A DNA stretch of 63,764 nucleotides, filler included, from Actinomycetota bacterium (lineage in GTDB: Bacteria > Actinomycetota > Actinomycetes > JAKEEW01), in the NCBI GenBank assembly GCA_046725875.1. It is 4 parts of 4 records of this genome, joined end to end, with 100 filler letters (N's around TTAATTAATTAA, not from the genome) between each part and the next. Parts side by side here need not be neighbours in the genome. Positions count along the whole stretch, not along the records: positions 1 to 31,977 come from JBKOZJ010000014.1; 3 more parts are not named here. One strand, 5' to 3'. The notes under the pieces were generated by a model. The model was not told the DNA's origin, ran no database searches, and saw only the letters and a program-made list of their open reading frames with translations. The position numbers and the translations under genes are program-made. Below are positions 1,201-20,117 of this stretch, one piece after another; position 1 is the stretch's first letter; each line of letters opens with the position of its first letter.

Positions 1201-1495
1201 GCGGTAACGGGTCTGATGGCGATTTGGATCGGCCACGCATTGTGACATGACTCGGTAGCTACGGCTCGTGTCTACTGGCCGCAGGGTGAGAGCCTGGCGA
1301 GGCGAGTATCCGACTTCACCCGTTCGACCCGGCCGCTACATCTATGCGTCGCCAAAATTTCGCTCTACCATCGCTTGTTGCGCCGGGTTTGCGGTAGCAA
1401 CCGGGCGCGGGGACGGAGTGGGGAGTTCCGTTCCGGTGGGAGGGCCCCCCACCCGGGGGTTCTAGCGCTCCTCCAGTGTGGGTCAGGGGGGTTTG

Positions 1496-2968
1496 ATGGC
1501 TGCTGTCGACACAGCGCAGGTCGGGACCGCGAGTAGCTGGGTTCTCCGGGGGCGAGCGCGTCGCCTAGCCCGTCCTTGGGAACGCACATACGTAACAGCG
1601 TTAATCGTCATCGATGCATGTGCCGCATCGGCGGCCGGCATGATCGCCTACGCATCACGCTTCATGGATCGAGACGCCGAGCACTCGTATATCTCGCTCG
1701 GTGCCCTGTTGCCGGCCTTGTGGCTCGCGTGCGTGGGCGCCAGCCGCGCTTACGAGTCGCGCTATCTCGGAGTTGGCTCGGAGGAGTTCCGTCGGGTCGT
1801 GACGGCCGCGGTCTGGTTGACCGCCGGGGTAGGGACGTTTTCCTGGATCACGAAGGCTGAGCTCGCCCGCGGCTACATGCTCGTGGCGCTGCCGGCCATA
1901 GCAGTCTTCACGCTCGTTGGGCGTTACGCCGCCCGCAAGCGGTTGCACTGGTTGCGGGCACAGGGCGACTGCGTGCAGCGGCTGGTCGTCGTGGGTGAGC
2001 CGGGGCCTACCGCGACTCTCGTACAGAGGCTGCGCAACGAGCCTTACCACGGTCTCGAAGTGGTCGGCGCATGCCTGCCGGCTGGCTCGTCCACTGCACC
2101 AGTCGACGCCGTGAATGTGGAGGTGCTCGGAACGTTCGACACGGTCCTCGAGGCCGTCCGCCGGTCGAGGGCGGACACCGTGGCCGTACTCGCGTGTCCG
2201 GAGATGTATGGGCTCGCTCTTCGCCGGTTGAGCTGGAGCCTGGAGCGGTACGGCACAGACATTCTCGTCGCTCCAACGCTCGTCGAGGTGGCTGGACCGC
2301 GGATCGCAATCCGGCCGATCGCCGGCCTGCCGTTGTTGCATGTCGACCACCCGGAGCTGACCGGCGGCCGCAGGATCATGAAGGCGTTGTTCGACCGCTG
2401 CGTGGCTGGCATCCTGCTGCTCCTGCTCGCACCGGTCCTATTCGCGATTGCGGCGCTGATCAAGCTCACAAGTCCGGGCCCGGTGCTCTTCCGGCAGCTG
2501 CGGATCGGCCGCCACGGCGAGCCGTTCACGATGGTGAAGTTCCGAACGATGGTCACCGATGCCGAGCAGCTGCGCGCCGACCTGATCGACCTCAACCAGC
2601 ACCACGAGGGTCCACTCTTCAAGATCAAGGATGATCCAAGGGTAACAAGAATCGGCGCCTGGCTGCGCCACTACTCGCTCGACGAGTTGCCCCAGCTGGT
2701 CAACGTGCTCCTCGGGGATATGTCGCTGGTTGGACCGCGCCCACCGTTGCCCGCCGAAGTCGCCCAGTACGGTCTGGACGCACGACGGCGGTTGGCCGTC
2801 AAGCCTGGGCTCACCGGGCTTTGGCAGATCAGCGGCCGGTCCAATCTCGACTGGGAGGAGTCCGTCCGGCTCGACCTCCGGTATGTCGAGAACTGGTCGC
2901 TCGCGTTCGATACGCTCATCCTCTGGAAGACCCTCTTCGTGGTCGCCCGCGGGGACGGCGCGTATTAG
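1496..2968 (+). CDS. Exopolysaccharide priming polyprenyl glycosylphosphotransferase (WcaJ/Bac_transf family)
   Basis: N-terminal TM helices; C-terminal KFRTM, DDPRVT, SLDELPQLVNVLLGDMSLVGPRP, KPGLTGLWQISGR motifs. Confidence 0.95.
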   Translation: MAAVDTAQVGTASSWVLRGRARRLARPWERTYVTALIVIDACAASAAGMIAYASRFMDRDAEHSYISLGALLPALWLACVGASRAYESRYLGVGSEEFRRVVTAAVWLTAGVGTFSWITKAELARGYMLVALPAIAVFTLVGRYAARKRLHWLRAQGDCVQRLVVVGEPGPTATLVQRLRNEPYHGLEVVGACLPAGSSTAPVDAVNVEVLGTFDTVLEAVRRSRADTVAVLACPEMYGLALRRLSWSLERYGTDILVAPTLVEVAGPRIAIRPIAGLPLLHVDHPELTGGRRIMKALFDRCVAGILLLLLAPVLFAIAALIKLTSPGPVLFRQLRIGRHGEPFTMVKFRTMVTDAEQLRADLIDLNQHHEGPLFKIKDDPRVTRIGAWLRHYSLDELPQLVNVLLGDMSLVGPRPPLPAEVAQYGLDARRRLAVKPGLTGLWQISGRSNLDWEESVRLDLRYVENWSLAFDTLILWKTLFVVARGDGAY

Positions 2969-3174
2969 ACGCACGCATCCTCCCCGCGATCGGAGGTGAC
3001 CGCGGCGGGGATGAGTTCCAGATCTGACCAGCAGAGACTGTTTCTCCGTAGGCTGTCGAGGCAATCACGCTTCTTTCCGGAGGCGGCTTCTTGCCATGAG
3101 CGGTGTCGCCCTGGACAGGGTCAACCGGCGGAGTCATGCTGCGGTATCGGCTCGGCGCGACCTTGGGGGTCTGT

Positions 3175-3582
3175 ATGAAGCGCCTCTTCTTGCTTGCCAC
3201 TGCCGTCCTGGCTGCGGTGCTATTCGCCACTCCAGTCCATGCCGCCCCGCAGACGACGATCACCTTCAGCGTGGATCCCATAGCGGTTACGACGGCGGAC
3301 GGGACGAGTCTGACAGTCCGGGTGACCGCGGGATGCCCGGCCAACTACGAGGTGCTCGAGGCGTTCGCCTACGTAACGCAGGCTGGCGCGCAAAGCAACT
3401 TCGTCGGCATCCCGCTGATGTGCCGGCCGAAGGGACAGGAGTACACGCTCACGGTGCCCGCTCCGGAAGGGCAGGTCTGGACGGCCGGCCCGGCTTTGCT
3501 ATCCGGCTTCGTGCTGCTCATCCGCAAGTCCGAGACATTGTCGGCATCACCAAGCGCCACACTGGAGATCGTGGTTCCGTAG
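3175..3582 (+). CDS. Small secreted hypothetical protein
   Basis: Sec signal MKRLFLLATAVLAAVLFATPVHA, beta-rich mature part with two Cys, GGGGG upstream of the ATG. Confidence 0.7.
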   Translation: MKRLFLLATAVLAAVLFATPVHAAPQTTITFSVDPIAVTTADGTSLTVRVTAGCPANYEVLEAFAYVTQAGAQSNFVGIPLMCRPKGQEYTLTVPAPEGQVWTAGPALLSGFVLLIRKSETLSASPSATLEIVVP

Positions 3583-3742
3583 GCTCAGAGTGGGGCCGGA
3601 CCCCGCAACGGGGGTACCGGCCCCGACAAGCGTGAGGCCGCGCTGGAAGGCATGCGACGATTTCTTCCTCGATGCGATCGTGTACAAGGTCCGCGACGCC
3701 GGGCCGGCGGCCGACCTCTCTTCGGGCTGACTCTCCCGGTCC

Positions 3743-4432
3743 TTAAAGGTCTCCCGCTGAGATCCTTTGCCGCAACGCCGTGAGCAGGAGCACCACCGCC
3801 AGGGTCACTGCGACGCCCAAACACATGCCACCCACCACGTCTGTTAGGAGGTGCTCCGAGGTAGCCACGCGAGCCCAGGCCATGGTGAGCACCCATATGC
3901 TCCCCAGCGCAGCTACGACTGCCGACACGGACGACTGCACGACGGCGGAGCGCAGGACCAACACGAGCAAAAGGACCAGCGACGTCGCGACCGCCACTCT
4001 CCCCGATGGGTAGCTGAAGCTTTCGACCCCGAGGGAGCGGCGCCCGGCCAGCTTGATCAACATCTCAGCACCGGCCGTGGCCGGAGCTACCAGGCAAGCT
4101 GCGACAACCGCGTCCCAGCGCCGTAGCAGAGCCCAGGCTATGAGGGCAATTGCGAGGCTTCCGGCGATCACGGCCAATAGCCGCGCACTGTCATCGAGCC
4201 GGCTAGCGAATCGGTAGGGAAGTCCAGTACGGGAAACCGTCAGGACTTGGACTGCCCAGGCATCCAGTCTGCTCTGCCGAGTGCTCCACACCAGCGCGCC
4301 GATCACACTGCCCAATGCCAGGGCGAAAATCGCGACGGCCGGTGCCCACACTGGGACAAGACCGCCGGAAGGCGCTCGAGGGCGAACCCGGTCATCCAAG
4401 CCCGCCACCCCCGAGACTCCACCACGCCGCAT
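3743..4432 (-). CDS. PAP2-family membrane phosphatase (start uncertain)
   Basis: KLAGRR, SYPSGR and ARVATSEHLLTDVVGG motifs with several TM helices; PSGH is altered to PSGR. Confidence 0.8.
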   Translation of the reverse strand: MRRGGVSGVAGLDDRVRPRAPSGGLVPVWAPAVAIFALALGSVIGALVWSTRQSRLDAWAVQVLTVSRTGLPYRFASRLDDSARLLAVIAGSLAIALIAWALLRRWDAVVAACLVAPATAGAEMLIKLAGRRSLGVESFSYPSGRVAVATSLVLLLVLVLRSAVVQSSVSAVVAALGSIWVLTMAWARVATSEHLLTDVVGGMCLGVAVTLAVVLLLTALRQRISAGDL

Positions 4433-4654
4433 CCGTTCAGCGACGCCCTGCCCTCGCTTAGGCCCTCATGCATATCATGCGGCCCGGCTGACCTTGGTTC
4501 CGTCGTCGCCGTTTCGTCGGGCGCCAGCCCGCCATGATCGTCCTGCTATTGCTCACATCGTCTAAATTGCCAGTTCTGCTACCACCGGGCTCTGTCCGCA
4601 GGTAGCATCCGACCTGCAAGGGGAGGCATCGCAGCAGCCAACGGGGGCGGCTAG

Positions 4655-6652
4655 TTGGCCATCGTCGCCAGCATGCGTGGGCGTCAATCCAGCGGGTCAG
4701 TCCGCGCTGACGTCCAGGGGTTACGCGCTCTGGCTGTCCTGCTCGTCATGGCCTACCACGCCGGCCTCCCCGTGCCTGCGGGATTCGCCGGTGTCGACAT
4801 CTTCTTCGTCATCTCCGGATTCGTCATCACCGGCCTCATCCTCCGCCAAGCCGACGCCGGCCGATTCTCGCTCGCGATGTTCTACGCCCGCCGCATCAAG
4901 CGGCTATTTCCAGCGCTCATCCTCATGCTTGTCACCGTCCTCGTGCTGTCGTTCCTGCTCGAGTCGCCACTCGGCGCGCAGCAGAATACGGCTAAGACGG
5001 CGCTCGGAGCGACCATCTTCGTCGCAAACATCGTGATCGTACGAACGACCGGCGATTACTTCGACCCGGCAGCAACCACCAACCCGCTGCTACACGTGTG
5101 GACTTTGTCGGTCGAGGAACAGTTCTACCTCTGCTTCCCGACGCTCCTGCTTCTCGCGTGGGCGATCGGCCGGCGCGGCCGGGCAAACATGCGGGCGTCC
5201 GTGGTCATCGCCGTGCTGACAGGGATGAGCTTCGTCCTCGCGCTCGTCCTCACCTACGCCGATGGCCCTCTTTCGTTCGTAGACGACCCGAACGGCTGGG
5301 CTTTCTACTCCTCACCCGCGCGGGCGTGGGAGTTCGGCATCGGCGCGCTCATCGCTTTCTGGGCGCACGGCAGGGCGAGTCGCGGCAAGACCGTAGCGCG
5401 AGGGGCGGCCATGGTCGCGTTCCCGGCGATCCTGCTCATAGTCGCCGCGAATCTACTGGTGGACGACACGACCCGCTGGCCAGGTGTCGCCGCCCTACTC
5501 CCCGTCGCTGGCACCGCCGGCCTCATCCTCGCCGGTGTTCTTGGATCGAATCCGGTCTCGGGGCTCCTCTCTGTACGGCCCGCCGTTTGGGTCGGCGACC
5601 TCTCCTACAGCCTTTACCTGTGGCACTGGCCACTGATCGTCTTCGCAACTCTGCTGTGGCCCGGCGGCACGAGCAAGCTCCTGGCCGCCCTCATCTCGTT
5701 CGTGCCCGCCTGGCTCAGCTACCGCTATGTCGAAAGCCCGCTGCGCGCCGCCCCCGTCCGCTCCGTGGCCAAGGTGTTCGGCTTCGGCGGGGCGACCGCC
5801 GCGGCGACGGCCGGATTCGCGCTAGCCGTCGGTGTCCTCGGCGTAACCGCTGTACCCGACGCGGCGACCTACCGCGCGGAACGTGAAACCCTTCCCGTCG
5901 GCCGGGCTGGTGGTTGCATGATCCGTGACCATCCCTATGTCCCGAGTGACATCGATCGCTGCTACACCCGCGTCGCCCGGCCAAAGGGCTGGATCATGCT
6001 CGTTGGCGATTCTCATGCCGACGCGCTCTCCGACGGGGTCACAGCAGCGGCCCGTCACCTCGGCTACGACGTGCTCTCCCTTACCGGGGCGAGCTGCGAA
6101 TTCGCCCGTAATCCGGCGCCGTCCACCTTTGTTCCCAACTGTGCCGAGATGAACAACGACCTGCTCGATCGGGCAACCGGCAAGAATCCGCCCGGGCTCG
6201 TCATCATGTCGCATTGGAGCGCGCGTCGGATGGGAACACAAGATGACTGGCCACAGTCTCTTGGGCCCACCATTACCGAACTTCGCGAGGCCCGCATTCC
6301 CGTTCTGTTCGTGCTCGATGTGCCAAACTTCGCTGCCTGGGATGCAGGACAGCCGACACCGTGCCGCGGGGGCTTCCTGAACTTCACTTGCACGCTGTCG
6401 CGTAAGAACGTGGAGGCCATCCAGGGTCGAGCCCGAGCAGCCGAGATCGCCCTCATCCGCAACCGCCCCGGCGTAACTACCTACGATCCATGGCCGCATT
6501 TCTGCAACGCGACAGCCTGCTCGTCCGTCGTGAACGGGCGGCTCGCCTACCGGGACTTCGACCACCTCAACGCCATCGGCAGCAGCCTCCTTGCGCCCGA
6601 CCTACAGGAGGCCATACGTGCAGCGATCGGCCAGCCACACTCCGTTCGCTGA
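4655..6652 (+). CDS. OafA-like acyltransferase 3 with C-terminal SGNH domain
   Basis: RADVQGLRALAV, GVDIFFVISGF, HVWTLSVEEQFY, SYSLYLWHWP; SGNH motifs VGDSHA and YRDFDHL. Confidence 0.93.
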   Translation: MAIVASMRGRQSSGSVRADVQGLRALAVLLVMAYHAGLPVPAGFAGVDIFFVISGFVITGLILRQADAGRFSLAMFYARRIKRLFPALILMLVTVLVLSFLLESPLGAQQNTAKTALGATIFVANIVIVRTTGDYFDPAATTNPLLHVWTLSVEEQFYLCFPTLLLLAWAIGRRGRANMRASVVIAVLTGMSFVLALVLTYADGPLSFVDDPNGWAFYSSPARAWEFGIGALIAFWAHGRASRGKTVARGAAMVAFPAILLIVAANLLVDDTTRWPGVAALLPVAGTAGLILAGVLGSNPVSGLLSVRPAVWVGDLSYSLYLWHWPLIVFATLLWPGGTSKLLAALISFVPAWLSYRYVESPLRAAPVRSVAKVFGFGGATAAATAGFALAVGVLGVTAVPDAATYRAERETLPVGRAGGCMIRDHPYVPSDIDRCYTRVARPKGWIMLVGDSHADALSDGVTAAARHLGYDVLSLTGASCEFARNPAPSTFVPNCAEMNNDLLDRATGKNPPGLVIMSHWSARRMGTQDDWPQSLGPTITELREARIPVLFVLDVPNFAAWDAGQPTPCRGGFLNFTCTLSRKNVEAIQGRARAAEIALIRNRPGVTTYDPWPHFCNATACSSVVNGRLAYRDFDHLNAIGSSLLAPDLQEAIRAAIGQPHSVR

Positions 6653-6703
6653 TCAGACCATCCAGCTTCGGCATTGCAAATGCCATGGCTCGGCAGCACT
6701 CCA

Positions 6704-8278
6704 CTAGGCCTTGACCAGCCGTCTGCTGTTTGACAGAACGCTTCGGACCAGATTTCGGCAGGTGCCGTAAAGCACTGCGAAGTAGACGCAGGCTCCGATG
6801 ACAAGCAGCACGACGATCAATGTGAGTCCTGCCACAGCACCGTCGAGGGCCGCCTTCGCCACCATGAGCGCGAGGAGCATCACGAGACCACTCGTCAACG
6901 GTGCGACAAAGAGGCGAAGATACCTGCCTAGGCGGATATCGAGGACCCGAGTGACCGACCAAACCGAGATCGGCGCGAGAAGATAGCCGCATACAACATA
7001 GCTTGTCGCCACCGCGAGAATGCCCCAACGAACCACCAGAATGAAACCGACGACATTGATGGCGGCAGTTAGCACGGCAACGCGGAAGGAGAGACTAGGT
7101 CGGCCGGCCGCGGTCACCATTGCCTTATTGAGATAGATGACGGCATGTGGGATCCCAACCAGGGCGAGGACCCTCATCACTGGTATGGCGTCGGCCCATT
7201 TAGTTCCGAAGGCGACGTTGATTAGCTCTGGTGTGATAACCGCCAGAGTGAGAAAGACCGGAATGGCAACAGCAAAGCAGAGCTGAGTGAGGTTGTAGAA
7301 TGCTCGCTTCGTCCGCTCGGCATCTTCATTTAGCCGGGAGAAGAGGGGAAACGCCACGCCTTCGATCGTCCAGATGATGATTTCCGTGACGATGAGCAAG
7401 ACCCGATAGGCCACAGTGTAAAGCCCTAGGGCAACGGAGCCCAGGACGAGGCCAATGAGAAAGTCATCCGAGCGACGACTCGTAAAGAGCGCCACTCTTT
7501 CCCCTAGAACGTTGGCACCGAAACGGAAGAGTCCACCGAATGTCCCGGCAGATACCTCTCGGCCCGGACGCCATGGGCACGCCAGCCACAGCACGAGAGT
7601 TCCGACGACGACGTTGGCCAACATCTGCCCGACCAGGCTCCAGACCCCGAAGCCGAGGAGAGCCATCCCGACGCCGACAGCCCCACCGGCGAATGTGCCG
7701 GCAAGTCCACGTAAAGCAACCTGGCGGAAGGCGAGCTCGCGGCGCAGCAGCGCTTGCGGGACGCTGGCGAGCGCTGCGAAGACGAACACCACCGAAAGGA
7801 CGCGCAGAACAGGCGCCAAGTCGGGCTGATCGAACGGCGCGGCGATCAGGCCCGCGCTGGCAGCCATGATGGCGGCGAGGATGGCGCCGATCGCATTATT
7901 CGCCCAGAATGCCGTGTCGAGATCGCGCGCAGATATTCGCTTGCGTTGGATCAATGCCTCGCCGAAACCAGACTCGACAAGCAGCGACAGCAGCACCACG
8001 AAAACCGACGCGAGGGCAACGGTGCCGAACGCCTCGGGGTCGAGAAGGCGAGCAAGAACGACGAAGACGAGGCTTCCGATCAGTCGCGACGAGACAGACC
8101 TCAGCACAGTCCAGCCAAGACCCCGTGCGGCCACGCCCTTGAGTCCGCCAGGCGGCGACGGCGGATGCAGCACCGACAGCCCGCCATCCGGTCCGGCGGG
8201 AACGACACGCTGGTCATCGTGAGACGACGCCCGCCTGCCGCGAGCGTGTCCGTTCCCCCTGCCTTCGCCGCCGATCAC
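6704..8278 (-). CDS. Wzx-type polysaccharide flippase (start approximate)
   Basis: LARLLDPEAFG, GFGEALIQR, GFGVWSLV, LGLYTVAYR, many TM helices; GTG preceded by GAGGGGG. Confidence 0.9.
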   Translation of the reverse strand: MIGGEGRGNGHARGRRASSHDDQRVVPAGPDGGLSVLHPPSPPGGLKGVAARGLGWTVLRSVSSRLIGSLVFVVLARLLDPEAFGTVALASVFVVLLSLLVESGFGEALIQRKRISARDLDTAFWANNAIGAILAAIMAASAGLIAAPFDQPDLAPVLRVLSVVFVFAALASVPQALLRRELAFRQVALRGLAGTFAGGAVGVGMALLGFGVWSLVGQMLANVVVGTLVLWLACPWRPGREVSAGTFGGLFRFGANVLGERVALFTSRRSDDFLIGLVLGSVALGLYTVAYRVLLIVTEIIIWTIEGVAFPLFSRLNEDAERTKRAFYNLTQLCFAVAIPVFLTLAVITPELINVAFGTKWADAIPVMRVLALVGIPHAVIYLNKAMVTAAGRPSLSFRVAVLTAAINVVGFILVVRWGILAVATSYVVCGYLLAPISVWSVTRVLDIRLGRYLRLFVAPLTSGLVMLLALMVAKAALDGAVAGLTLIVVLLVIGACVYFAVLYGTCRNLVRSVLSNSRRLVKA

Positions 8279-8346
8279 GCCGGCCCCCTCTTTACACATT
8301 TCTCGCGGCGCCAAGCAGTTCGCAGTTGCTGCCCGGGTGTGGCGTT

Positions 8347-9153
8347 CTAGGCCAGGGCTCCGGGCGTTCGCTCGCTGACCCCACTCCCCAGCTCGTCCCG
8401 CCACTTCTCAGCATCATCCCTCGGCTGGTAGCCGATGTCGCGCCGAGCGTCCTCAATGTCCCAAATACGCCAAGTATTCGCTGAAACGCCGTAGAAGATC
8501 CCGAAGACCAGGTCCTTCGGAGCGACTATGGATCGTCGTACAAGGTGTGCCATGTCGGCATGGGTGATCAACGTTGCCAGGTGCCGGGCGTTGGACGGAC
8601 GGTCTGCCCAAGTCAATGAACCGATTCGTAGGCACAACACGGACAGACCGTGCGCGTCCGCGTAGTAGCGCGCGGCCGCCTCGCCGAACGCCTTCCCCAC
8701 CCCATACGGGGTATCGGGGCGGAGGGCCATCGATGTGTCGATCTTCGGGACCATAGCGGGATCGAGGCCGTCGTATTTTCCGGCGACGATTTGCGCGTAG
8801 GGCGGATCGCGTTCGTACAGGCCGGTCACGTGGTTGGAGCTTGCGTAGATTACGCGGGACACACGACGACGGCGAGCAGCCTCGAGTACGTTCCAGGCGG
8901 CAGGAATGTTGTTGTCCCGCACAGCGTCCCACGGCTGCTGCCAATGGGCGGACGCCAGATCGATGACGACGTCAGCACCCTCGAAGGCCCTTTCCGCCTG
9001 CCTCAGGCGGGTCATATCTGCTCGCGAGACCGATCCGTGGCCCCGCCTCAGATCGACGCCAGCGACATCAAAGTCCGCTGCCAGAGCCTTCCGCAGCACC
9101 TGACCCACGAGGCCGCCTGCCCCCGTGATGATCAGGCGAGGCTTGGCACCCAT
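8347..9153 (-). CDS. NAD-dependent epimerase/dehydratase, uronate dehydrogenase-like SDR
   Basis: TGAGGLVG Rossmann motif, YASSNH, YGVGK (YxxxK), CLRIGS. Confidence 0.88.
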   Translation of the reverse strand: MGAKPRLIITGAGGLVGQVLRKALAADFDVAGVDLRRGHGSVSRADMTRLRQAERAFEGADVVIDLASAHWQQPWDAVRDNNIPAAWNVLEAARRRRVSRVIYASSNHVTGLYERDPPYAQIVAGKYDGLDPAMVPKIDTSMALRPDTPYGVGKAFGEAAARYYADAHGLSVLCLRIGSLTWADRPSNARHLATLITHADMAHLVRRSIVAPKDLVFGIFYGVSANTWRIWDIEDARRDIGYQPRDDAEKWRDELGSGVSERTPGALA

Positions 9154-9246
9154 CGGTTCTCCCAGCTCTGCACTAAACGGACCGACTTGATGCTAAACTC
9201 CGCCAGTTAGCGTGTCGTGTGGGGGCTTTGTTTTGGGGGCTTGACT

Positions 9247-9693
9247 GTGCGCTACCGCGTGAACAATCCGCAAGTGATCCACGAGATGATCGACGGCGAA
9301 GCCATCATGATCAATCTCGCTACAGGCAGCTACTACAGCCTGGACCCTGTTGCGGCCGAGGTGTGGACGTTCGTGGAGGCGTCCCAGCCTATCGATCGCA
9401 TCGTGGCGGAGCTGGATCGACGCTACGACGCCGACCCCGGCGCCATTCGCCGAGGCGTCGACGACCTGATAGAGCGGCTGTCGAGCGAGGGGCTCGTGGT
9501 TCCTTGTTCCGACGAGGAGGCCGCCCACCCGGTTGTGTCGGAGCCGGCGCCTGCCACTCGGGAGCCCTTCCGCGCGCCGCAGCTGGAAAAGTTCACGGAC
9601 ATGCAGGACCTCATCCTGCTTGATCCAGTACATGAGGTCGATTCTCGAGGGTGGCCACACCTGCCCAACGGGCAGGGGGCCACACCGCGATAG
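9247..9693 (+). CDS. PqqD-family (RiPP recognition element) protein with C-terminal extension
   Basis: DGEAIMINLATGSYYSLDPVAAEVW...LIERLSSEGLV winged-helix pattern, followed by the tail FRAPQLEKFTDMQDLILLDPVHEVDSRGWP. Confidence 0.88.
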   Translation: MRYRVNNPQVIHEMIDGEAIMINLATGSYYSLDPVAAEVWTFVEASQPIDRIVAELDRRYDADPGAIRRGVDDLIERLSSEGLVVPCSDEEAAHPVVSEPAPATREPFRAPQLEKFTDMQDLILLDPVHEVDSRGWPHLPNGQGATPR

Positions 9694-10748
9694 TGCAGTC
9701 GGCGGCGACCACCGGTCCGGGCATCGCCCAGCTCGCGGCCGCGTTCGATGAGGCGTTGGCGCGTACCCAACTCCAAGAACACCTGCTTCTAATGGGCGGG
9801 CATCAGGTCCTGATCCGCTTCGCCGGTCCTGGTGCCGTCCCATCGATCCTGCCTGCCTTTGCCCACCTGGCTGCCGCGAGGGATCGCAGACCGGAGCTCG
9901 TCGTCGACGTCTGGGATGCTGCATCGACTGGTGTTCCCGCCCCGCCGCATCCAGAGGTGGACCCACACTCACCGCCAGGCGCTTTTTACTACTTCGAGGA
10001 CCCTCCCCTGCGCGGCGTTTACCAGCCGGGCTTTCGGGCCCTCAGCGCGATAGATCTCGGCAGCGATCGTGCATGGTATTGCGTCGCCGACCCAGCTGAC
10101 CTGCCGTACTGGGAACGAGCGGCACCGATCCGGCAGATTCTGCACTGGTGGATGGCCAGCCGTGGCCACCAGCAGGTCCACGCCGGGGCGGTGGGCATGC
10201 CTGACGGGGGCGTCCTCCTCGTCGGAAAGGGCGGTTCGGGGAAGTCAACCTGTTCGCTCATCTCGCTCACCTCCGTCCTGCGCTACGCGGGCGACGACTA
10301 CACGATGGTGAGCATCGGGCGGCGTCCCTGGGTACACAGTCTCTTCAGCTCGGGAAAGGTCCATCCGGAGAATCTTTGGCGCATGCCCCACCTCCGGTCG
10401 GCTTTGTCGAATGGTGATCGCCTCGCGACCGAGAAGGCTGTCGTCTTTGTGGACCAGCATTTCCCCGACCGGCCGATCGACGGGTTTCCGCTGCAGGCCA
10501 TCCTGCTTCCGACGATCACTGGCGGCAGGCACACCCGGACGGTTGAGGTCACTCGAGCGGCCGCTCTCGCGGCATTAGCTCCCAGCACCGTCTTCCAACT
10601 GCATACGGCCGGCCGGGAGGCGCTGCAGTTCATGGCTCGCCTAGTGCGGGACGTACCGGCATATGCGCTCGAGCTCGGCTCCAACGTCTCTGAGGTTCCA
10701 GATGTGATCCTGACCCTACTGGACCGGCTAAGGCAGGATGTGGCATGA
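9693..10748 (+). CDS. HPr kinase-related P-loop kinase
   Basis: VHAGAV, Walker A GKGGSGKST, AGDDY; the GTG start overlaps the PqqD stop (TAGTG). Confidence 0.85.
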   Translation: MQSAATTGPGIAQLAAAFDEALARTQLQEHLLLMGGHQVLIRFAGPGAVPSILPAFAHLAAARDRRPELVVDVWDAASTGVPAPPHPEVDPHSPPGAFYYFEDPPLRGVYQPGFRALSAIDLGSDRAWYCVADPADLPYWERAAPIRQILHWWMASRGHQQVHAGAVGMPDGGVLLVGKGGSGKSTCSLISLTSVLRYAGDDYTMVSIGRRPWVHSLFSSGKVHPENLWRMPHLRSALSNGDRLATEKAVVFVDQHFPDRPIDGFPLQAILLPTITGGRHTRTVEVTRAAALAALAPSTVFQLHTAGREALQFMARLVRDVPAYALELGSNVSEVPDVILTLLDRLRQDVA

Positions 10749-11458
10749 CGAGACCGCTCGTCACTGTAATCGTCGCGGTCCACAATGGAGAGCGATATCT
10801 TCGGCTCGCTCTAGAGAGTCTCTTCGAACAGGATTACGATCCATTCGAAGTCGTATTCGTCGACGACGGTTCGACCGACGATAGCGCCGCCATTGCCCGA
10901 ACCTTCCCGAGTATTCGCTACGTCTACCAGGAAAACCAGGGACTGGCCGCCGCTCGTAACACAGGTCTCTCATTGGCGCGGGGAGAATTTCTCGCTTACC
11001 TTGACGACGACGATCTGATACCGCCACATAAGCTGGGTCGTCAATCCGATTACCTCATAGCCAATCCGGATGTTGGTTGCGTATTAGCGCGCCAGGAGAT
11101 CTTGCTCGAACCAGGCGTCGAGCCTCCGGAATGGCTGAGCCGCGACCCGATCTTCGGCGATCTTGACGGGATCCCGCTCGTGTCTGCGATGATCCGGACC
11201 AAGGTGCTGCGCGAGGTCGGCGGGTTCGACGTGAGTTATCGCTTCGCCGAGGATCGTGATCTGTTCGTACGACTCAGGGAGCACGGCGTGCGGGTGGACG
11301 TCATACCGGAGGTCCTGCTGTTTCGCCGGTTCCATGGCGAGAACATGAACTTCCGCCTGCGGCCTGCCAAACACCCGCTGCTTCGGTCGCTCAAGGCAAA
11401 GATCGATCGCGAGCGGGCGGCCGACAGCGCAGAGGATCGGGGGCATCGTGGGGATTGA
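10745..11458 (+). CDS. Glycosyltransferase family 2
   Basis: VIVAVHNGERYL, VDDGSTD, AARNTG, YLDDDD, AEDRDL; ATGA overlap with the kinase stop. Confidence 0.93.
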   Translation: MTRPLVTVIVAVHNGERYLRLALESLFEQDYDPFEVVFVDDGSTDDSAAIARTFPSIRYVYQENQGLAAARNTGLSLARGEFLAYLDDDDLIPPHKLGRQSDYLIANPDVGCVLARQEILLEPGVEPPEWLSRDPIFGDLDGIPLVSAMIRTKVLREVGGFDVSYRFAEDRDLFVRLREHGVRVDVIPEVLLFRRFHGENMNFRLRPAKHPLLRSLKAKIDRERAADSAEDRGHRGD

Positions 11459-12200
11459 CCGCTGCCTCATCTCCGTCATGATCCCCGTTTACAACGGTGA
11501 GGCGTATCTGGGTGAGGCCATCGACAGCGTACTGGAGCAGTCATACCATCCGATTGAGATCATCGTCGTCGACGATGGCTCGACCGATGGCACGGACAGT
11601 GTCGCACTCGGCTACGCCGGCGACGTTCGCTACGAACGACAGCCGCGGGCTGGTAACGGCGCCGCCCGCAACCGAGCCGTCCAGTTGGCGAACGGCGATC
11701 TTTTTGCCTTCCTCGACGCCGACGACCGCCTCGTGCCCGGTTCGCTCGAGCGACTGGCGCGCGTGCTTGAGGAGGACCAGTCTCTGCAGGCCGTGTACGG
11801 GCACGTACGGGAGTTCGTGAGCCCGGACATCGATGCCGAGGACCTTGCCCGGCTGCGAGCACCAATCGCAAGGATCGCTGGCTGCCTGCCGACCAACATG
11901 CTGATGCGTCGCGACGCCTTCCGCCGGGTCGGTCGGTTCGCTACGCATCTGCGGGTTGGGGTCACAGTCGACTGGGCGGCGCGAGCGGACGAGATTGGAC
12001 TGCGCAAGATCCTCCTCGACGACGTGTTGTTCGAGCGGCGGCTCCACGGCGACAACAACGGCATCCGGGAGCGAGAGCATCGCAGTCACTACATCCAGGT
12101 CGTCAAGGCCGCCCTCGACCGACGTCGGGCCCTGCAACAGTCGGGATCTGCCCGGACCCTAGACGATGCGGCCTCGTCGCAGCCACAAGAGCGGGACTGA
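11448..12200 (+). CDS. Glycosyltransferase family 2
   Basis: VMIPVYNGEAYL, VDDGSTD, AARNRA, FLDADD. Confidence 0.93.
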   Translation: MGIDRCLISVMIPVYNGEAYLGEAIDSVLEQSYHPIEIIVVDDGSTDGTDSVALGYAGDVRYERQPRAGNGAARNRAVQLANGDLFAFLDADDRLVPGSLERLARVLEEDQSLQAVYGHVREFVSPDIDAEDLARLRAPIARIAGCLPTNMLMRRDAFRRVGRFATHLRVGVTVDWAARADEIGLRKILLDDVLFERRLHGDNNGIREREHRSHYIQVVKAALDRRRALQQSGSARTLDDAASSQPQERD

Positions 12201-12201
12201 T

Positions 12202-13377
12202 ATGAAACGGGCCGGTTTCACCGGTGACATCTGGCCGGATGAGACACAGGAATTACTTCTGCGCTCCGCGCTTCTGCCAGGCCCGGCCGGAACAGCCGCC
12301 TGGTCCGCGCTCCGCCCCAGCATTGACATCGACCATCTGCCAGGTGAGCTCCATCGCCTCATCCCTCTTCTCTCCAAGTCCCTTGCTTCGCATGGGATCA
12401 ACGATCCGGACCTTCCGCGCTTGAAGGGCGTCTACCAGTTCTCCTGGTATCGCAATCAGCGCCTCTTCGCCGACGGCGCAGCATTCCTGGGAGCGTTGGA
12501 CGCTGCTGGGGTTCCCACGATGCTTCTCCGGGGCGCCGCAATGACCATCGCTTATCACGGCGATGTGGGTACGCGACCGATGAACGACCTCGACGTCCTG
12601 CTGCCGGCCGACCAGCTAGACAAGGGTCGGCGTGTAGCGGAGGCCATAGGCTGGTCGCGTTATGCGGAATCCAGGACGCTCGAGCAGCGCGAGGCCGCGA
12701 CGATTCTCAGGAACCAGGACGGGCGCCTGATGCGGCTCCACTGGTCGGCGAGCCGCAATGTGCCGACGCCGGTGGGATTGGAGCACCCAATATGGAGGCG
12801 GGCAACCCAAATCCAGTTCGGCAATACCATCACATGTGTGCCGGGCTCCGCCGACCACTTCGTCTATGCCTGCCTGGACGGGGCACGAGCCAACTCCGGG
12901 TCGACGTTGCGGTGGATCACGGACGCCACTGTCCTCCTGCGTTCGGCGCGTGACCTCGACTGGGACGTCGTAGTGGGGGAGGCGCGTCGACACCGCGTCT
13001 CGCTACTAATCTCCGAGGCGCTGCGCTATCTGGTCGATGTACTCGACGCAGAGGTCCCGAGCGGTCCGATCGAGGCGCTACGCGCGACTCCGGCGACAGC
13101 CCGCGACCGGATCGCCCACCGCCTCAGCCTGACAACGAGTCCTGGTCTCCCTTCTGCCGCCGAGCTACTCGGCCGGTTCACTCGCCTCACCGCTGACCTT
13201 CCGCTGTCGGCGGCGGTCGGTACGCTGCCCGCTTTCCTTCAGACCACGCTCGGAGTGCCACGCCGCCGGGACGTGCCGATAGCCATCGCCCGGAAAGCGA
13301 TTAAGGCCGTGGCGTCCCCCCCGCGTTCGCTCGCGGAGCTCTCGAGGGCCGGACCACCTAGGTCGGGCAGGAAATAG
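12202..13377 (+). CDS. Nucleotidyltransferase (NTP_transf_5-like), copy 1
   Basis: LLRGAA, RPMNDLDVLL, RLHW, RWITDA. Confidence 0.85.
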   Translation: MKRAGFTGDIWPDETQELLLRSALLPGPAGTAAWSALRPSIDIDHLPGELHRLIPLLSKSLASHGINDPDLPRLKGVYQFSWYRNQRLFADGAAFLGALDAAGVPTMLLRGAAMTIAYHGDVGTRPMNDLDVLLPADQLDKGRRVAEAIGWSRYAESRTLEQREAATILRNQDGRLMRLHWSASRNVPTPVGLEHPIWRRATQIQFGNTITCVPGSADHFVYACLDGARANSGSTLRWITDATVLLRSARDLDWDVVVGEARRHRVSLLISEALRYLVDVLDAEVPSGPIEALRATPATARDRIAHRLSLTTSPGLPSAAELLGRFTRLTADLPLSAAVGTLPAFLQTTLGVPRRRDVPIAIARKAIKAVASPPRSLAELSRAGPPRSGRK

Positions 13378-13378
13378 C

Positions 13379-14611
13379 GTGCGGCAGCAGATCGGCACGG
13401 TTGGTCCGCACCCCGCCTTGATCGAGGTCGCGGCTGGTCGCGGCCTGCCGGTCGTGCCTGATCCGCTGCCGCTGGTGCGCTCGGCGCTCGCGCATGGCAT
13501 GGGGGGTCTCCTCCTCACTGAGGTGGAACAAACGGGCCAGCCATGGCATCGGCTTACCCTGGCTGCGCTCACCGCCAGGCAGGCAAAGGTTCGGGCCTGG
13601 CACGAGCGGCTGTGGGATACCTCGACCCGCATCGCCGCCGTCTTTGACGATCTCGCTGTCGAGGTAGCTATCGCGAAGGGAGTCGCGGCGGAGACACGGT
13701 GGTACACCCGGATGGGTGAGCGGCCGTGCAGCGACATCGATCTCCTCCTGTCGCCGGCACACGTCGCTCGCATCGACGACGTGGTGGCCGCGATCGAGCC
13801 GCGGCACCCACTTTGTGGAAAGGTCCGCCGACTGGCCGAGCGCGGACTCCTCCAATCGATCGATCTCGAGTACGACGGCGTTCCTATCGACTTGCACTGG
13901 GACATCTTCAAGCTTGGGGTTCCGTCACGGAACGTAGAGGCGATCTGGGACCGGACGGTGCCATTCGCTCTCCGCGACGGCCGCTCGATTCGGGCGCTCG
14001 ACGCCACATCGTCCTACATCCACTTCCTCATCCATCTGAACAAGGATCGCTTCAGGCGACTGCTGGGATTTGTCGACGCGGCTCGGGTATATGCGAGCGA
14101 TCAGGTGGATCATTCCGCCGTCGATCGGCTGATTCGGGCCGACGGGATCGAGACCAGCGTCAGCGCCTCCTGGGAGGTCGTGATTCGCACACTCGACCTG
14201 TCCGTTCCGAACCAGATCAAGCGCCAGCCGGTCAGGTCCCTCATATGGCATCTTGCCTGGCGTCCATCGGTTAGGCTGCGTGCGGCCGAGTCGACCGTCC
14301 GCTTTCGCCATCGCCAATGGCTGATTGCAGCGCTAAGCCGGGGCAGGGCTATGGAGGCGGCTAGGTCCTGGATACGGGGACGGTTCCCACCAGGCGAGCT
14401 GTTGGCTTATGTCCATTCTGGCTATGCGACCCGCTGGGGGGGCGAGCCGGTATCGACCTCCCGCCGATCCCGTATCTGGTCACTGACCGTGGGCCGCCTG
14501 ATGGCGGCGCTTGGCAGACGGCGACACCTTGCTCAGGTGACCGGCCCTGCCGGGACCAGACGGCCGGGAGCAGACGATGGGAGGCCGCGCCGCAGCCGAG
14601 GCGCACCGTAG
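13379..14611 (+). CDS. Nucleotidyltransferase (NTP_transf_5-like), copy 2
   Basis: IAKGVA, RPCSDIDLLL, IDLHW, LLGFVDA. Confidence 0.85.
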   Translation: MRQQIGTVGPHPALIEVAAGRGLPVVPDPLPLVRSALAHGMGGLLLTEVEQTGQPWHRLTLAALTARQAKVRAWHERLWDTSTRIAAVFDDLAVEVAIAKGVAAETRWYTRMGERPCSDIDLLLSPAHVARIDDVVAAIEPRHPLCGKVRRLAERGLLQSIDLEYDGVPIDLHWDIFKLGVPSRNVEAIWDRTVPFALRDGRSIRALDATSSYIHFLIHLNKDRFRRLLGFVDAARVYASDQVDHSAVDRLIRADGIETSVSASWEVVIRTLDLSVPNQIKRQPVRSLIWHLAWRPSVRLRAAESTVRFRHRQWLIAALSRGRAMEAARSWIRGRFPPGELLAYVHSGYATRWGGEPVSTSRRSRIWSLTVGRLMAALGRRRHLAQVTGPAGTRRPGADDGRPRRSRGAP

Positions 14612-14669: not shown

Positions 14670-15461
14670 CTAGAGAACGGCCGCGAGGTGCGCCAGAAGC
14701 AAGTCACCGAGCTCGTGTCGGCACACAAGCAAGTCCGGTAGAGCGGGGTTCACCTGGTTATAGGAAAGCTCGGAGGCATCGATCCGGGAGACGTGAAGAC
14801 CGGCGGCGAGGGCGACGGCAACCGGGGCAGCAGAGTCCCATTCGTACTGACCGCCGGCATGGATGTAGGCGTCTGCCGCGCCAGTGATCACTGCACCGAC
14901 TTTGGCGCCGGCCGAACCCATTGGGACAAGCTCGGCGCCGAGTTCGCCCGCGACGGCCTCGATGAACCGGGGCGGTCGGGTGCGGCTGACGGTTATCCGC
15001 AACAGTCGCTCGGGTTCGCGCCGCGGTGCAATCTGGGGCGGGCCAGCGGTCGAAAGGGTGAGTCCTTGCGCCGGCAGGGCAACCGCTCCCGCCACGAGTC
15101 CGCCCTCGTGCGCTCCTGCCGGCATCGCGGAATGGCCCTCGAAGCCGCCCCGTACCCAGAGCGCAACATGGACGGCCCAATCGGTGCGCCCGGACTCGCC
15201 GTACTCGCGCGTCCCATCCAGCGGATCGATGATCCATACACGGTCGGCTGTGAGCCGGCGCGGATCGTCCTTGCCTTCTTCAGACAGGATCGCGTCCCGG
15301 GGGCGGGCCGCGGCCAGTTCGGCCATCAAGAGCTCGTGCGACTCGCGATCCCCGGCCTTGCCAAGATCCTCCACGTCATCCCGTTGGCGCAGGGCGAGCA
15401 AGCGACGCCCAGCCTCCGCGGCCAGGTCGCATGCGAGCAGATGATCTTCACGACGGGGCAT
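14670..15461 (-). CDS. cysQ: 3'(2'),5'-bisphosphate nucleotidase CysQ
   Basis: [28 protein letters not shown]; lies directly downstream of cysDN. Confidence 0.92.
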   Translation of the reverse strand: MPRREDHLLACDLAAEAGRRLLALRQRDDVEDLGKAGDRESHELLMAELAAARPRDAILSEEGKDDPRRLTADRVWIIDPLDGTREYGESGRTDWAVHVALWVRGGFEGHSAMPAGAHEGGLVAGAVALPAQGLTLSTAGPPQIAPRREPERLLRITVSRTRPPRFIEAVAGELGAELVPMGSAGAKVGAVITGAADAYIHAGGQYEWDSAAPVAVALAAGLHVSRIDASELSYNQVNPALPDLLVCRHELGDLLLAHLAAVL

Positions 15462-15526
15462 CGCGACAGCCTAACCTCCGAGCGCCCAGCCAGCGTGCCG
15501 GACACACCAGAGACCAGCTAAGGCTA

Positions 15527-16858
15527 CTAACCGATGATCATGCCGGCGGCGACTGTGCCGTTGGTGACCTCGTCGATGAGGATGAATCCGCCGGTCTGGC
15601 GATTCCGGGAGTACGCGTCGGAAAGCAGCGGCTGGGTAGTCCGCAGCCGGATTCGCCCGATGTCGTTCAACCCAAGCTGGGTGACGCTCTCCTCGCGATG
15701 GAGGGTGTTGACGTCAAGCCGGTAGGCGAACTCCTTGACCAGTGCTCGCACGGAACGAGTGGTGTGCTTGAGCACATACTTTCCGCCCGCCGTGAGCACC
15801 CGCCGGTCGTCCATCCAGCACACCATCGCGTCGATGTCTTGGATGACATCCGGCTGGTTGCCGGGCCGGCAGATCATGTCGCCGCGCGAGATGTCGATTT
15901 CATCGTCGAGCCGCAACACGACCGACATCGGCGGGTACGCTTCCTCGACCGGCCCATCGGCCGTGTCGATGCCGACGATCCGACTGGTGTAGCCAGATGG
16001 GAGCAACAAGACCTCGTCGCCCGGTTTCAGCACACCGCCCGCCACCGTGCCCGCATAGCCGCGATAGTCCGGAAACGCCGAGGACTTCGGTCGGATGACG
16101 TACTGCACCGGAAAGCGCACGTCAACCAGGTTCCGGTCTGAGGTGATGTGTACCTGTTCCAGATGCGACAGCAGCGACGGGCCCTCGTACCAGGGCATGT
16201 TCGCGGATCCGTCGACCACGTTGTCGCCGTGCAGCGCGCTGATCGGAATGACGGCGAGGTCGGGCACGGCGAGTCGGGCCGCAAAGCTCTCGAACTCCGC
16301 GCTGATCTCCTCGAAGACCTCGGGCGACCAGCCGACCAGATCCATCTTGTTGATACAGAGCACGATGTGCGGCACCCGCAGCAGCGAAACCAGGAAGGCG
16401 TGCCGGCGGCTCTGCTCGACCAGGCCCTTCCGCGCGTCCACCAGGATGATCGCAAGGTCGGCGGTAGATGCGCCGGTGACCATGTTGCGGGTGTACTGCT
16501 GGTGCCCGGGGGTGTCAGCGATGATGAACTTCCGCCGCGGGGTGGCGAAATACCGGTACGCGACATCGATCGTGATGCCTTGCTCCCGCTCCGCGCGCAG
16601 GCCGTCGGTGAGCAGCGCCAGGTCCGTGTAGTCGTCGCCGCGCTCCCGGCTGGTTCGTTCCACCGCGTCGAGCTGGTCCTCGAAGATCGACTTCGAGTCG
16701 TACAGTAGCCGGCCGATCAGCGTGCTCTTGCCGTCGTCGACCGAGCCCGCCGTCGCGAAGCGCAGGATGTCGTGGCGCCGCCCCCAGCGGCCGGACTCGA
16801 CCGGGTCAGCGGACACCGAAAAGTCGGACAGCTCCGACGAGCCAGGCAGCAGGGTCAT
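15527..16858 (-). CDS. cysN: Sulfate adenylyltransferase subunit 1, without a fused APS kinase
   Basis: TAGSVDDGKSTLIGRLL, AEREQGITIDVAYRYF, DTPGH, NKMD; ends at VAAGMIIG. Confidence 0.96.
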   Translation of the reverse strand: MTLLPGSSELSDFSVSADPVESGRWGRRHDILRFATAGSVDDGKSTLIGRLLYDSKSIFEDQLDAVERTSRERGDDYTDLALLTDGLRAEREQGITIDVAYRYFATPRRKFIIADTPGHQQYTRNMVTGASTADLAIILVDARKGLVEQSRRHAFLVSLLRVPHIVLCINKMDLVGWSPEVFEEISAEFESFAARLAVPDLAVIPISALHGDNVVDGSANMPWYEGPSLLSHLEQVHITSDRNLVDVRFPVQYVIRPKSSAFPDYRGYAGTVAGGVLKPGDEVLLLPSGYTSRIVGIDTADGPVEEAYPPMSVVLRLDDEIDISRGDMICRPGNQPDVIQDIDAMVCWMDDRRVLTAGGKYVLKHTTRSVRALVKEFAYRLDVNTLHREESVTQLGLNDIGRIRLRTTQPLLSDAYSRNRQTGGFILIDEVTNGTVAAGMIIG

Positions 16859-17766
16859 CAGAAGTAGCCCTCCCGCTTGCGGTCCTCCATTGCTGCCTCG
16901 GACGTTCGGTCGTCCGCCCTGGTTGCCCCGCGTTCGGTGATCCGCGTCGCGGCAACCTCCTGGATCACCTCGGCGATGGTCGACGCGGACGAGAGCACGG
17001 CACCTGTGCAGGACATGTCCCCGACCGTCCGAAACCGCACCATGCTCGTCGAGACCGGCTCACCCTCCCGCGGGCGCACATGCTCACCGACCGCCAGCAG
17101 CATGCCGTCGCGTTCGACGACCTCCCGCTGATGCGCGAAGTAGATCCGCGGCAGCTCGATCCCCTCGCGCTCGATGTACTGCCAGATGTCCAGCTCGGTC
17201 CAGTTGGACAACGGGAAAACCCGGATGTGTTCGCCCGGATGGATCCGTCCGTTATAGATGTCCCATAGCTCCGGCCGCTGGTTCTTTGGGTCCCACTGTC
17301 CAAACTCATCCCGGAATGAGAAGAACCGCTCCTTCGCTCGGGCCTTCTCCTCGTCCCGGCGGGCGCCGCCGAAGAGCGCATCGAACCTGTACCCCTCGAT
17401 CGCCTCGAGCAGCACGGGCGTCTGCAGCCGGTTGCGGCCGGCCGGATCCCGGGACTCCGCGAGCCGGCCGGCGCGGATCGCCTCGTCTACGGAGGCCACG
17501 ACCAGCCGGACCCCAAGGTCCCGCACCCGCCCGTCACGGAAGTCCAGGACTTCAGGGAAGTTGTGACCGGTGTCCACATGCAGCACTGCGAACGGGATCG
17601 GCGCCGGCCAGAACGCCTTTGCCGCGACATGCAGCAGCACGGCCGAGTCCTTGCCACCGGAGAAGAGCAGTGCCGGGCGCTCGAACTCGGCGGCCACCTC
17701 CCGGATCACATGGATGGCCTCCGACTCGAGCACGTCCAGCTGACTGAGCCGATAGTCAATGCGCAC
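16858..17766 (-). CDS. cysD: Sulfate adenylyltransferase subunit 2
   Basis: LFSGGKDS, DTGHNFPE, GGARRDEEKARAKER, MEDRKREGYF. Confidence 0.96.
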   Translation of the reverse strand: MRIDYRLSQLDVLESEAIHVIREVAAEFERPALLFSGGKDSAVLLHVAAKAFWPAPIPFAVLHVDTGHNFPEVLDFRDGRVRDLGVRLVVASVDEAIRAGRLAESRDPAGRNRLQTPVLLEAIEGYRFDALFGGARRDEEKARAKERFFSFRDEFGQWDPKNQRPELWDIYNGRIHPGEHIRVFPLSNWTELDIWQYIEREGIELPRIYFAHQREVVERDGMLLAVGEHVRPREGEPVSTSMVRFRTVGDMSCTGAVLSSASTIAEVIQEVAATRITERGATRADDRTSEAAMEDRKREGYF

Positions 17767-17994
17767 CTGATCCCCGATCCGAGCTAATTCTGGTCGCGTC
17801 GCCGCACGAGGCTCGATCCCGCTGCTCACCCCGCCGTGGCGGTGACGCGCAAGTCCCCGATAGTACGGGGGAGCCCACAGGCGCGGAAATCGTACGGCAA
17901 CGGGCCCGGCAAGTATGGCCGAACGCGAGCGTTTCCGGCTACGCATAGTAAGAACGGGCGCGAAAGGATAATGGGCGTAGTCGGTGGGAGTCCA

Positions 17995-20018: not shown

Positions 20019-20117
20019 CTTTCCGCCCGATTCGGTTGGATTTGGCAACCGCGCATGGAACGACCTGGTGTGTTACCGCACGTCAGGCGCCTGCCGGTTC
20101 ATTGTCGCAGAGCCCTC

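Follow-up and report, generated by a model that had tools for sequence, protein, structure and literature searches.

The window, i.e. the whole stretch of DNA analysed here (63,764 nucleotides, filler included), comes from the genome of an Actinomycetota bacterium; its positions 1-31977 correspond to contig C14, and positions 31978-63764 are N or lie off that contig. A gene coding for a PqqD/RRE domain with a C-terminal tail (the tail gene, and its product the RRE-tail protein) is followed in the same orientation by kinase, glycosyltransferase and nucleotidyltransferase genes, with the following features:

8347..9153, minus strand: divergent gene of the NAD-dependent epimerase/dehydratase family (PF01370, E 4.8e-21)
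9247..9693, plus strand: RRE-plus-tail gene, 148 aa (longest ORF starting at 9217; stop codon TAG at 9691-9693)
9298..9498, plus strand: PqqD/RRE domain, lasso-B1-like winged helix (PF05402, Foldseek)
9508..9564, plus strand: variable acidic Pro/Ala linker, residues 98-116 (low column information, length variation)
9565..9594, plus strand: leader-like docking motif P117-F118-x-x-P121-x-L123-E-K-F126 (conservation, AlphaFold2)
9595..9660, plus strand: near-invariant core T127-D-M-Q-D-L-I-L-L-D-P-V-H-E-V-D-S-R-G-W-P-H148 (conservation, synonymous codons)
9661..9693, plus strand: variable C-terminal end and stop codon (last residue differing among homologues)
9693..10748, plus strand: HprK-type (PEPCK-fold) kinase (profile match, invariant motif, AlphaFold2)
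10554..10652, plus strand: helices 288-302 and 308-320 of the kinase, on which the RRE sheet is predicted to dock (complex model)
10745..11458, plus strand: GT2 glycosyltransferase, 237 aa, soluble GT-A only (PF00535, E 3.3e-33)
11448..12200, plus strand: second GT2 glycosyltransferase, 250 aa (PF00535, E 4e-35)
12166..13377, plus strand: NTP_transf_5 nucleotidyltransferase with NDLDVLL (PF14907, E 2.6e-32)
13379..14611, plus strand: second NTP_transf_5 nucleotidyltransferase with SDIDLLL (PF14907, E 1.3e-23)

The longest ORF of the tail gene (9217..9693, plus strand) codes for 158 aa, and its translation matches exactly the one quoted in the original prediction, which had described an RRE, a linker and a FRAPQL tail; these parts are real, with the F118 codon starting at 9568 and the TAG stop codon ending at 9693. 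Residues are numbered here according to the 158-aa ORF, the numbering of the models being 10 lower. The true start is probably the GTG codon at 9247 (VRYRVN), since the homologues begin with MRYRVN and the protein called in the window is 148 aa long. A search with the whole protein returned 471 matches at E<=0.001 among 548 candidates, and most of these homologues are 145-150 aa long. From the N-terminus, the protein consists of the RRE, the acidic, Pro/Ala-rich linker PCSDEEAAHPVVSEPAPATRE, which differs in sequence and length among homologues, the segment PFRAPQLEKF and then TDMQDLILLDPVHEVDSRGWPH. The single Pfam domain detected was PqqD (PF05402) at residues 28-94 (E 3.7e-14; 53.2 bits against a gathering cut-off of 23.4), and the tail was covered by no Pfam or NCBIfam model. 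The best NCBIfam matches were two lasso B1 chaperone models, both under their cut-offs (NF033536, 46.4 against 80; NF033530, 35.9 against 70), which leaves the protein outside these chaperone families.

The genes from 9247 to 14611 abut or overlap, in the order tail gene, kinase, two GT2 and two NTP_transf_5 genes, and this operon leaves no room for a separate precursor gene. The probable GTG start of the kinase and the stop codon of the tail gene share one base (TAGTG). Both nucleotidyltransferases score well above the PF14907 cut-off (112.8 and 84.3 bits against 31.2), and the Asp-x-Asp metal site is present. The tail gene is the sole PqqD gene of the genome. No B2 leader protease (Transglut_core3, PF13471) was found in this genome (89% complete) or among the ORFs of the cluster, and no Asn-synthetase-like macrolactam cyclase was found in the 21 ORFs of the window scanned, from 1478 to 23690.

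A polysaccharide locus lies upstream (1478-8404), with a Bac_transf priming transferase (1478-2968), PAP2 (3743-4432, minus strand), an AT3-SGNH acyltransferase (4655-6652) and a Wzx/MOP flippase (6704-8404, minus strand). Because the cluster sits within this locus, its GT2 enzymes might serve a lipid-linked glycan. Directly after the cluster, genes for a CysQ-like 3'(2'),5'-bisphosphate nucleotidase, a CysN-like GTPase and a CysD-like PAPS_reduct protein are found on the minus strand (14670-17946), and it is possible that these sulfate-activation genes are tied to sulfation of the product of the cluster. They are adjoined by genes for a histidine kinase and an OmpR-type response regulator (17995-20048, minus strand).

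An alignment of 26 sequences with identities as low as 52% had its invariant columns concentrated in P117...P147, and a loose regular-expression form of the tail motif was present in 118 of 120 close homologues among the matches listed. When the 51-aa tail alone was searched with phmmer against 1.84 billion cluster representatives, 2006 representatives, each standing for a cluster at 50% identity, were retrieved at E<=0.001 and 20 at E<=1e-10. Most of the best 150 of these 2006 matches were 140-160 aa long with the match at the C-terminus, 28 were shorter than 100 aa and 11 longer than 170 aa. Nearly all of the 2006 representatives appear to be RRE fusions of ~147 aa. The tail had no match among PDB sequences at E<=10, no fused form above 277 aa was found among 2 candidates, and a search of the ESM Atlas returned solely unnamed PqqD clusters.

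The original prediction counted on a conserved tail, and this expectation was borne out by the number of representatives as well as by an alignment of 98 rows (97 representatives of 130-170 aa and the protein of the window), in which D136, H139, G145, W146 and P147 were identical throughout and P121, D128 and P137 were kept in 97 rows. The tail-protein alignment A2 omits P0001 (the window's own protein, entered by reference) and P0104 (216 aa, with a long N-terminal extension). Position 118 was mostly aromatic (F84/Y12) and position 123 aliphatic or Phe (L77/I8/V7/F4), position 127 was T76 S13 N3 D2, and position 143 was E52 A17 D11 S7. The proline at position 121 was missing in 7/47 loci, all of the Acidimicrobiia type. 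Beyond GWP, a median of 10 residues followed and the last residue varied (R66 G45 A29 N26 S22 ... of 269), with no enrichment in Ser. The invariant residues are encoded by several synonymous codons (in 49 copies, GAC 25 and GAT 24 for D136 and four codons for V138), and selection therefore acts on the protein. The tail is the most conserved part of the RRE-tail protein, above the RRE itself, and the recurrence of its motif goes well beyond what chance would produce.

Stand-alone tail peptides were represented by 6 short matches only, each on one contig. Remnants of RRE helix 3 can still be recognised in most of the 28 short representatives, which are therefore regarded as fragments truncated at the N-terminus. 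A split system made of an RRE and a separate tail peptide was not established. In one locus (L034), a second ORF of the cluster (10734-11249) carries a tail (...LEKYTDLADIIMLDPVHDVSDAGWP...) with no RRE detectable upstream in any frame. Either this ORF codes for a stand-alone tail peptide, or it is an artefact, since many frames are broken in this assembly.

A scan of one genome per species yielded 48 tail-gene loci, from Actinomycetota, Binatia, Deltaproteobacteria, Thermoflexales, Hyphomicrobiales, Burkholderiales and others, and their neighbours were tallied by tblastn with the proteins of the window. The kinase lay beside the tail gene in 43/48 loci, GT2 genes were present in 45/48 (one to six copies) and the nucleotidyltransferase in 32/48; the three occurred together in 31 loci. 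An epimerase was found in 18 loci and a Wzx flippase in 8, leaving 40 without. Three of the five kinase-less loci are on contigs that end just past the GT2 genes, and the other two are from Thermoflexales, with the kinase and GT2 genes on another contig of the same genomes. In these two Thermoflexales loci (in L011 at 6189-10360), the tail gene stands between a Wzz/ParA-type (BY-kinase-like) gene and a gene for a 639-aa ABC exporter. A sulfotransferase gene was found upstream of the tail gene in seven Binatia-type loci. Among 301 genomes sampled from the phylum, the kinase family was detected in 4 (E<=1e-30), 3 of which were also matched by the tail query (E<=1e-5), and in the fourth (G093) a divergent tail gene directly precedes the kinase gene, so that all four carry a tail gene just upstream of the kinase. 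This rarity within one phylum suggests that the tail gene and its partners are a mobile accessory trait.

The RRE-tail protein was modelled with AlphaFold2 from a 119-row alignment (mean pLDDT 84, pTM 0.74). The RRE part, with pLDDT values of 90-98, shows the three strands followed by three helices that characterize a PqqD/RRE domain (strands 10-15, 18-23 and 28-32, helices 34-44, 49-59 and 64-80 of the 148-aa model). Foldseek returned six matches at E<=0.001, namely 5v1v_A, four chains of 5v1u and 6jx3_B, all of them crystal structures of lasso B1 proteins in complex with their leader peptides (E 4.4e-6 to 7.8e-4, TM on target 0.86-0.91), at a sequence identity of only 17-26%.

The likening of FxxPxL to the YxxPxL of lasso leaders held, as the aromatic-x-x-Pro-x-Leu spacing is present (F118, P121, L123) and kept in the family (F84/Y12, P97 and L77 of 98). 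Lasso leaders also have a Gly four and a penultimate Thr ten residues after the Leu; in the window's protein T127 and I133 occupy these positions instead (L72/I20 at position 133 in the 98 rows). The absence of the cleavage-site Thr noted in the original prediction is thereby confirmed, and no B2 protease was found in the genome or the cluster. As for the proposal that FRAPQL adds a strand to the RRE sheet, the model gave pLDDT 90 for ORF residues 111-120 and 85 for residues 121-130, with a DSSP strand at L123-F126 inside FxxPxLEKF. Since DSSP cannot call a lone strand, this segment is paired with the domain in the model; its partner would be the free edge of the sheet, strand beta3, which is where leaders pair in solved complexes with RREs. 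Structures of B1-leader complexes exist, so that the predicted cis-docking may in part stem from the predictor having learned them. Further on, pLDDT dropped to ~53 at residues 131-150 and to 39 at the extreme end, and the distal invariant tail is predicted to be disordered when alone, as also in the complex model described below.

The product of the gene following the tail gene scored 30.5 bits with the model of HprK-related kinase A (TIGR04352), against a curated cut-off of 200. Its profile matched the HprK/P structures 1jb1/1kkl (E 6.8e-6) in the region that holds the His, the P-loop and the Asp-Asp pair. The motif H-x14-G-x2-G-x-G-K-S-x15-D-D of lasso-type HprK-like peptide kinases is present, and its residues H163, G178, G181, G183, K184, S185, D201 and D202 are invariant in 31/31 kinase sequences. 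The kinase alignment (A3) comprises 30 segments from 30 loci and the window, and omits kinases with partial tblastn coverage (e.g. L010, L017, L021, L027, L032, L034, L035, L044-L048); where a locus has a second copy of the kinase (L006, L013 and L043), that copy is likewise omitted. The AlphaFold2 model of the kinase (pLDDT 93) was closest to PEPCK; as a whole it resembles two-domain PEPCK more than HprK/P alone (TM on query about 0.55), and it has an N-terminal domain of about 130 residues.

The kinase was also modelled in complex with the full RRE-tail protein, with ipSAE values of 0.83, 0.83 and 0.84 against 0.00 for the best of three controls. In the calibration of the modelling tool, this mark was reached by 116/157 solved complexes and 2/215 mismatched pairs, counts that hold only roughly here because alignments prepared for this analysis were used. 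The runs share at least 41% of their contacts, with a partner pLDDT of at least 76. The confident interface links kinase residues 287-319 to RRE residues 18, 21-28, 30, 32, 34, 37, 39 and 41. On the kinase helices A291, A294, A296 and P297 are nearly invariant, and the RRE side consists of the most conserved RRE positions. P-loop residue 179 of the kinase and tail residues F126, D128 and M129 also belong to the confident interface, whereas the invariant DPxH...GWP segment does not. In the original prediction, the docked motif presents LLDPVHEVDSRGWP as a substrate or as an enzyme-binding or autoinhibitory arm; the confident tail contacts with the kinase fall instead on F126, D128 and M129, which follow closely on the leader-like strand. 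Taken as a whole, the interpretation in the original prediction is partly supported.

Ser143, listed in the original prediction among the available residues, was rejected as acceptor of a modification, being a minority residue at its position (7 of 98), and a C-terminal Ser as for PadeK and PsmK was rejected as well, since the last residue is varied (Ser in 22/269). Thr127 is the only mostly conserved hydroxyl and stands between tail residues that share the confident interface with P-loop residue 179. As an obligatory acceptor it is weakened by the loci: position 127 is T36 S1 D6 E2 M1 N1 in 47 loci, i.e. D, E, N or M in 10/47 loci with intact kinases, and the kinases of the loci with D or E retain every catalytic residue. 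Phosphomimicry by the acidic replacements is conceivable and would point to a charge switch, not to an anchor for a glycan; another possible target is the invariant D128.

In the usual view, an RRE is a domain to which the leader of a separate peptide binds, so that the core can be passed on to enzymes. The complexes of TbiB1 with the TbiA leader (5V1V, 5V1U) and 6JX3, the best structural matches of the RRE, share the motif spacing with the RRE-tail protein; there the binding takes place in trans between two chains, whereas here the motif is on the same chain. HprK binds HPr through the C-terminal helices of HprK. As with HPr kinase/phosphorylase and HPr (1JB1, 1KKL, 1KKM), in which HPr is a small protein substrate, the P-loop, His and Asp-Asp region of the kinase aligns; unlike HprK/P, only about 54 residues align and the whole fold is nearer to two-domain PEPCK. 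The LysW amino-group carrier and pearlin scaffold peptides have a conserved flexible end that is passed from enzyme to enzyme, and these systems use the C-terminal residue itself. Unlike them, the RRE-tail protein has an internal conserved motif and a varied end, and its cluster is without an ATP-grasp or PEARL enzyme.

A close parallel is the lasso system BsfB1/BsfK/BsfA of Bradymonas sediminis, with a discrete PqqD-type RRE, an HprK-like kinase of equal motif spacing (H148-G163-G166-G168-K169-S170-D186-D187, residues shown to matter in BsfK), a YxxPxL-type recognition motif and a nucleotidyltransferase gene (PMC10368454). According to the same paper, the aromatic-x-x-P-x-L motif of lasso leaders sits at positions -17 to -12, BsfB1 greatly accelerates BsfK on the YxxPxL-bearing precursor, and leader and core form a separate peptide that is cleaved, cyclised and phosphorylated at Ser3, 14 residues after the leader Leu (PMC10368454). 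The system described here differs in that the motif is fused to the RRE, B2 protease, cyclase and a conserved Ser are missing, and GT2 genes are added; T127 lies 4 residues after L123 rather than 14. The predicted docking of kinase and RRE is a model and not a measurement, and it agrees with the acceleration of BsfK by BsfB1.

An HprK-type kinase and an uncharacterised nucleotidyltransferase are likewise shared with pseudomycoidin PsmK/PsmN and paeninodin PadeK (PMC6993621, PMC8498205). PsmK phosphorylates, and PsmN is required for the addition of hexoses to the phosphate (PMC6993621); the NDLDVLL and SDIDLLL motifs of the NTP_transf_5 proteins are comparable to D134/D136 of PsmN (PMC6993621). 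PsmK and PadeK act on the C-terminal Ser of the lasso precursor, and lasso clusters sometimes have a sulfotransferase gene at their edge (PMC6993621, PMC8498205), sulfotransferase and nucleotidyltransferase genes flanking those of Firmicutes (PMC8498205). In contrast, the C-terminus of the RRE-tail family is varied and not enriched in Ser, and its loci add 1-6 GT2 genes, with two nucleotidyltransferase genes here.

The B1-type RRE, the YxxPxL motif, the HprK-type peptide kinase and NTP_transf_5 are therefore of known kinds. What is new is the fusion of an RRE with a recognition motif and an invariant core, the lack of cyclase and protease, and the fixed GT2 partnership: a recognition motif and a near-invariant "core" occur on the RRE's own chain, without the enzymes that define any RiPP class. 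In a literature search, no description of the RRE-tail family was found, and the arrangement points to a self-contained protein-modification system, undescribed so far. In a 2025 survey, 21% of PF05402 proteins exceed a discrete RRE with no other annotation, and orphan PqqD genes above 110 aa were flagged as unexplored (PMC12710340); such genes can hide their own putative substrate. The arrangement is common in environmental bacteria, with 2006 clusters at 50% identity in several phyla, and may connect RiPP-type recognition logic with cell-surface glycan loci. The RRE-tail protein offers a defined, easily expressed putative substrate for RRE-dependent HprK-type kinases and NTP_transf_5 enzymes, whose chemistry is poorly known.

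The balance of the evidence tips slightly towards an RRE with its leader in cis, whose own arm would be offered first to the kinase and afterwards to the nucleotidyltransferase and GT2 enzymes. A lasso-B1-type RRE would bear its own leader-like recognition motif (aromatic-x-x-P-x-L-E-K-F) on the same chain, and this motif would fold back onto the RRE, to be followed by a presumably disordered, near-invariant arm (D-M-x-D/E-L-L-L-L-D-P-V/I-H-E/D-V-x3-4-G-W-P). With its conserved face, the RRE sheet would dock on the two conserved C-terminal helices of the adjoining HprK-type kinase, bringing F126-T127-D128-M129 to the kinase P-loop; from this docking the RRE-tail protein would be a dedicated, self-presenting substrate or arm of an enzyme line made of kinase, NTP_transf_5 and GT2, with a sulfotransferase added in some lineages. 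Like PsmK and PsmN acting on pseudomycoidin, this line would probably build a sugar decoration linked through phosphate. Since no cyclase, leader protease or cleavage motif is present, it is not a lasso pathway. Against this reading speaks above all that no tail residue fits a universal hydroxyl acceptor, its weakest point; further points against it are the longer distance from leader Leu to modified site in BsfK, the DPxH...GWP segment lying outside the confident kinase interface, the seven loci without Pro at position 121, the surrounding polysaccharide locus, and docking and binding evidence that is all from models. The conservation, the gene linkage, the fold, the docking and the kinase-complex models are computational results; the presumed covalent modification of the tail and its position, like the presumed ligand of the invariant DPxH...GWP part, are what we infer. 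It is rather doubtful, though conceivable, that the arm D-P-V/I-H-E/D-V-x3-4-G-W-P is a covalent handle on which the kinase, the nucleotidyltransferases, a variable set of GT2 enzymes and sometimes a sulfotransferase build up a phospho-linked, sometimes sulfated, glycan or small molecule. If so, it would amount to a protein-primed, carrier-style assembly line in which the RRE keeps its leader bound in cis and shuttles the arm between enzymes, and to a new class of ribosomally templated glycoconjugate, patchy across at least six bacterial phyla.

Among the other readings, the one that most deserves attention, although we consider it unlikely, is that of an unmodified adaptor, a non-catalytic subunit whose invariant arm would be a short linear motif that recruits or activates the kinase, nucleotidyltransferase or GT2 enzymes. 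Their substrate would not be a protein but, for instance, a sugar, a nucleotide-sugar or a lipid-linked glycan belonging to the polysaccharide locus around the cluster, and the leader-like strand bound in cis would merely rigidify the RRE. It would account for a tail without a universally conserved Ser or Thr, disordered when alone, whose invariant Asp, His, Trp, Pro and hydrophobic residues are typical of a binding motif, and for a kinase whose overall fold is nearest to PEPCK, a small-molecule kinase. Polysaccharide genes are also near (a Wzx gene in 8 of the 48 loci and an epimerase gene in 18, a Wzz/BY-kinase-like gene at L011, Bac_transf in the window), but the flippase is missing in 40/48 loci. 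Moreover, the complex model sets tail residues at the kinase P-loop, and a GT2 count of 1 to 6 facing an invariant tail agrees with a glycan that varies on an attachment point that stays the same. Where relatives of this kinase type that occur with an RRE have been characterised, they all phosphorylate peptides (PMC8498205, PMC6993621, PMC10368454).

The tail might instead be the core peptide of a RiPP precursor in reverse order, modified, cut by a housekeeping protease and released or exported. The leader-like motif followed by a conserved core, the RiPP-type tailoring enzymes and the ABC exporter directly downstream in two Thermoflexales loci fit this idea, which is nevertheless improbable: the conserved gene set of the 48 loci includes no protease, no cleavage motif is conserved and the end after GWP is varied, and the exporter is not a regular neighbour. 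Quite improbable, too, is an autoinhibited RRE, in which the cis motif would be a pseudo-substrate that blocks the cleft until displaced by a precursor encoded elsewhere. The cleft does appear filled in cis, and the second ORF of L034 and a few short proteins from metagenomes carry a tail without recognisable RRE, but the assembly of L034 has many broken frames, and the short proteins number 6, each from one contig, most of the 28 short representatives being fragments. The operon leaves no space for a precursor gene, and a mere plug would not need the invariant part beyond the docking motif.

Two irregular forms of the RRE-tail protein were also observed. One locus (L044) contains a second, frameshifted RRE-tail copy at 8721-9189, and a protein of 284 aa (P0165) is a tandem of two RRE-tail units, the first tail of which is degenerate.
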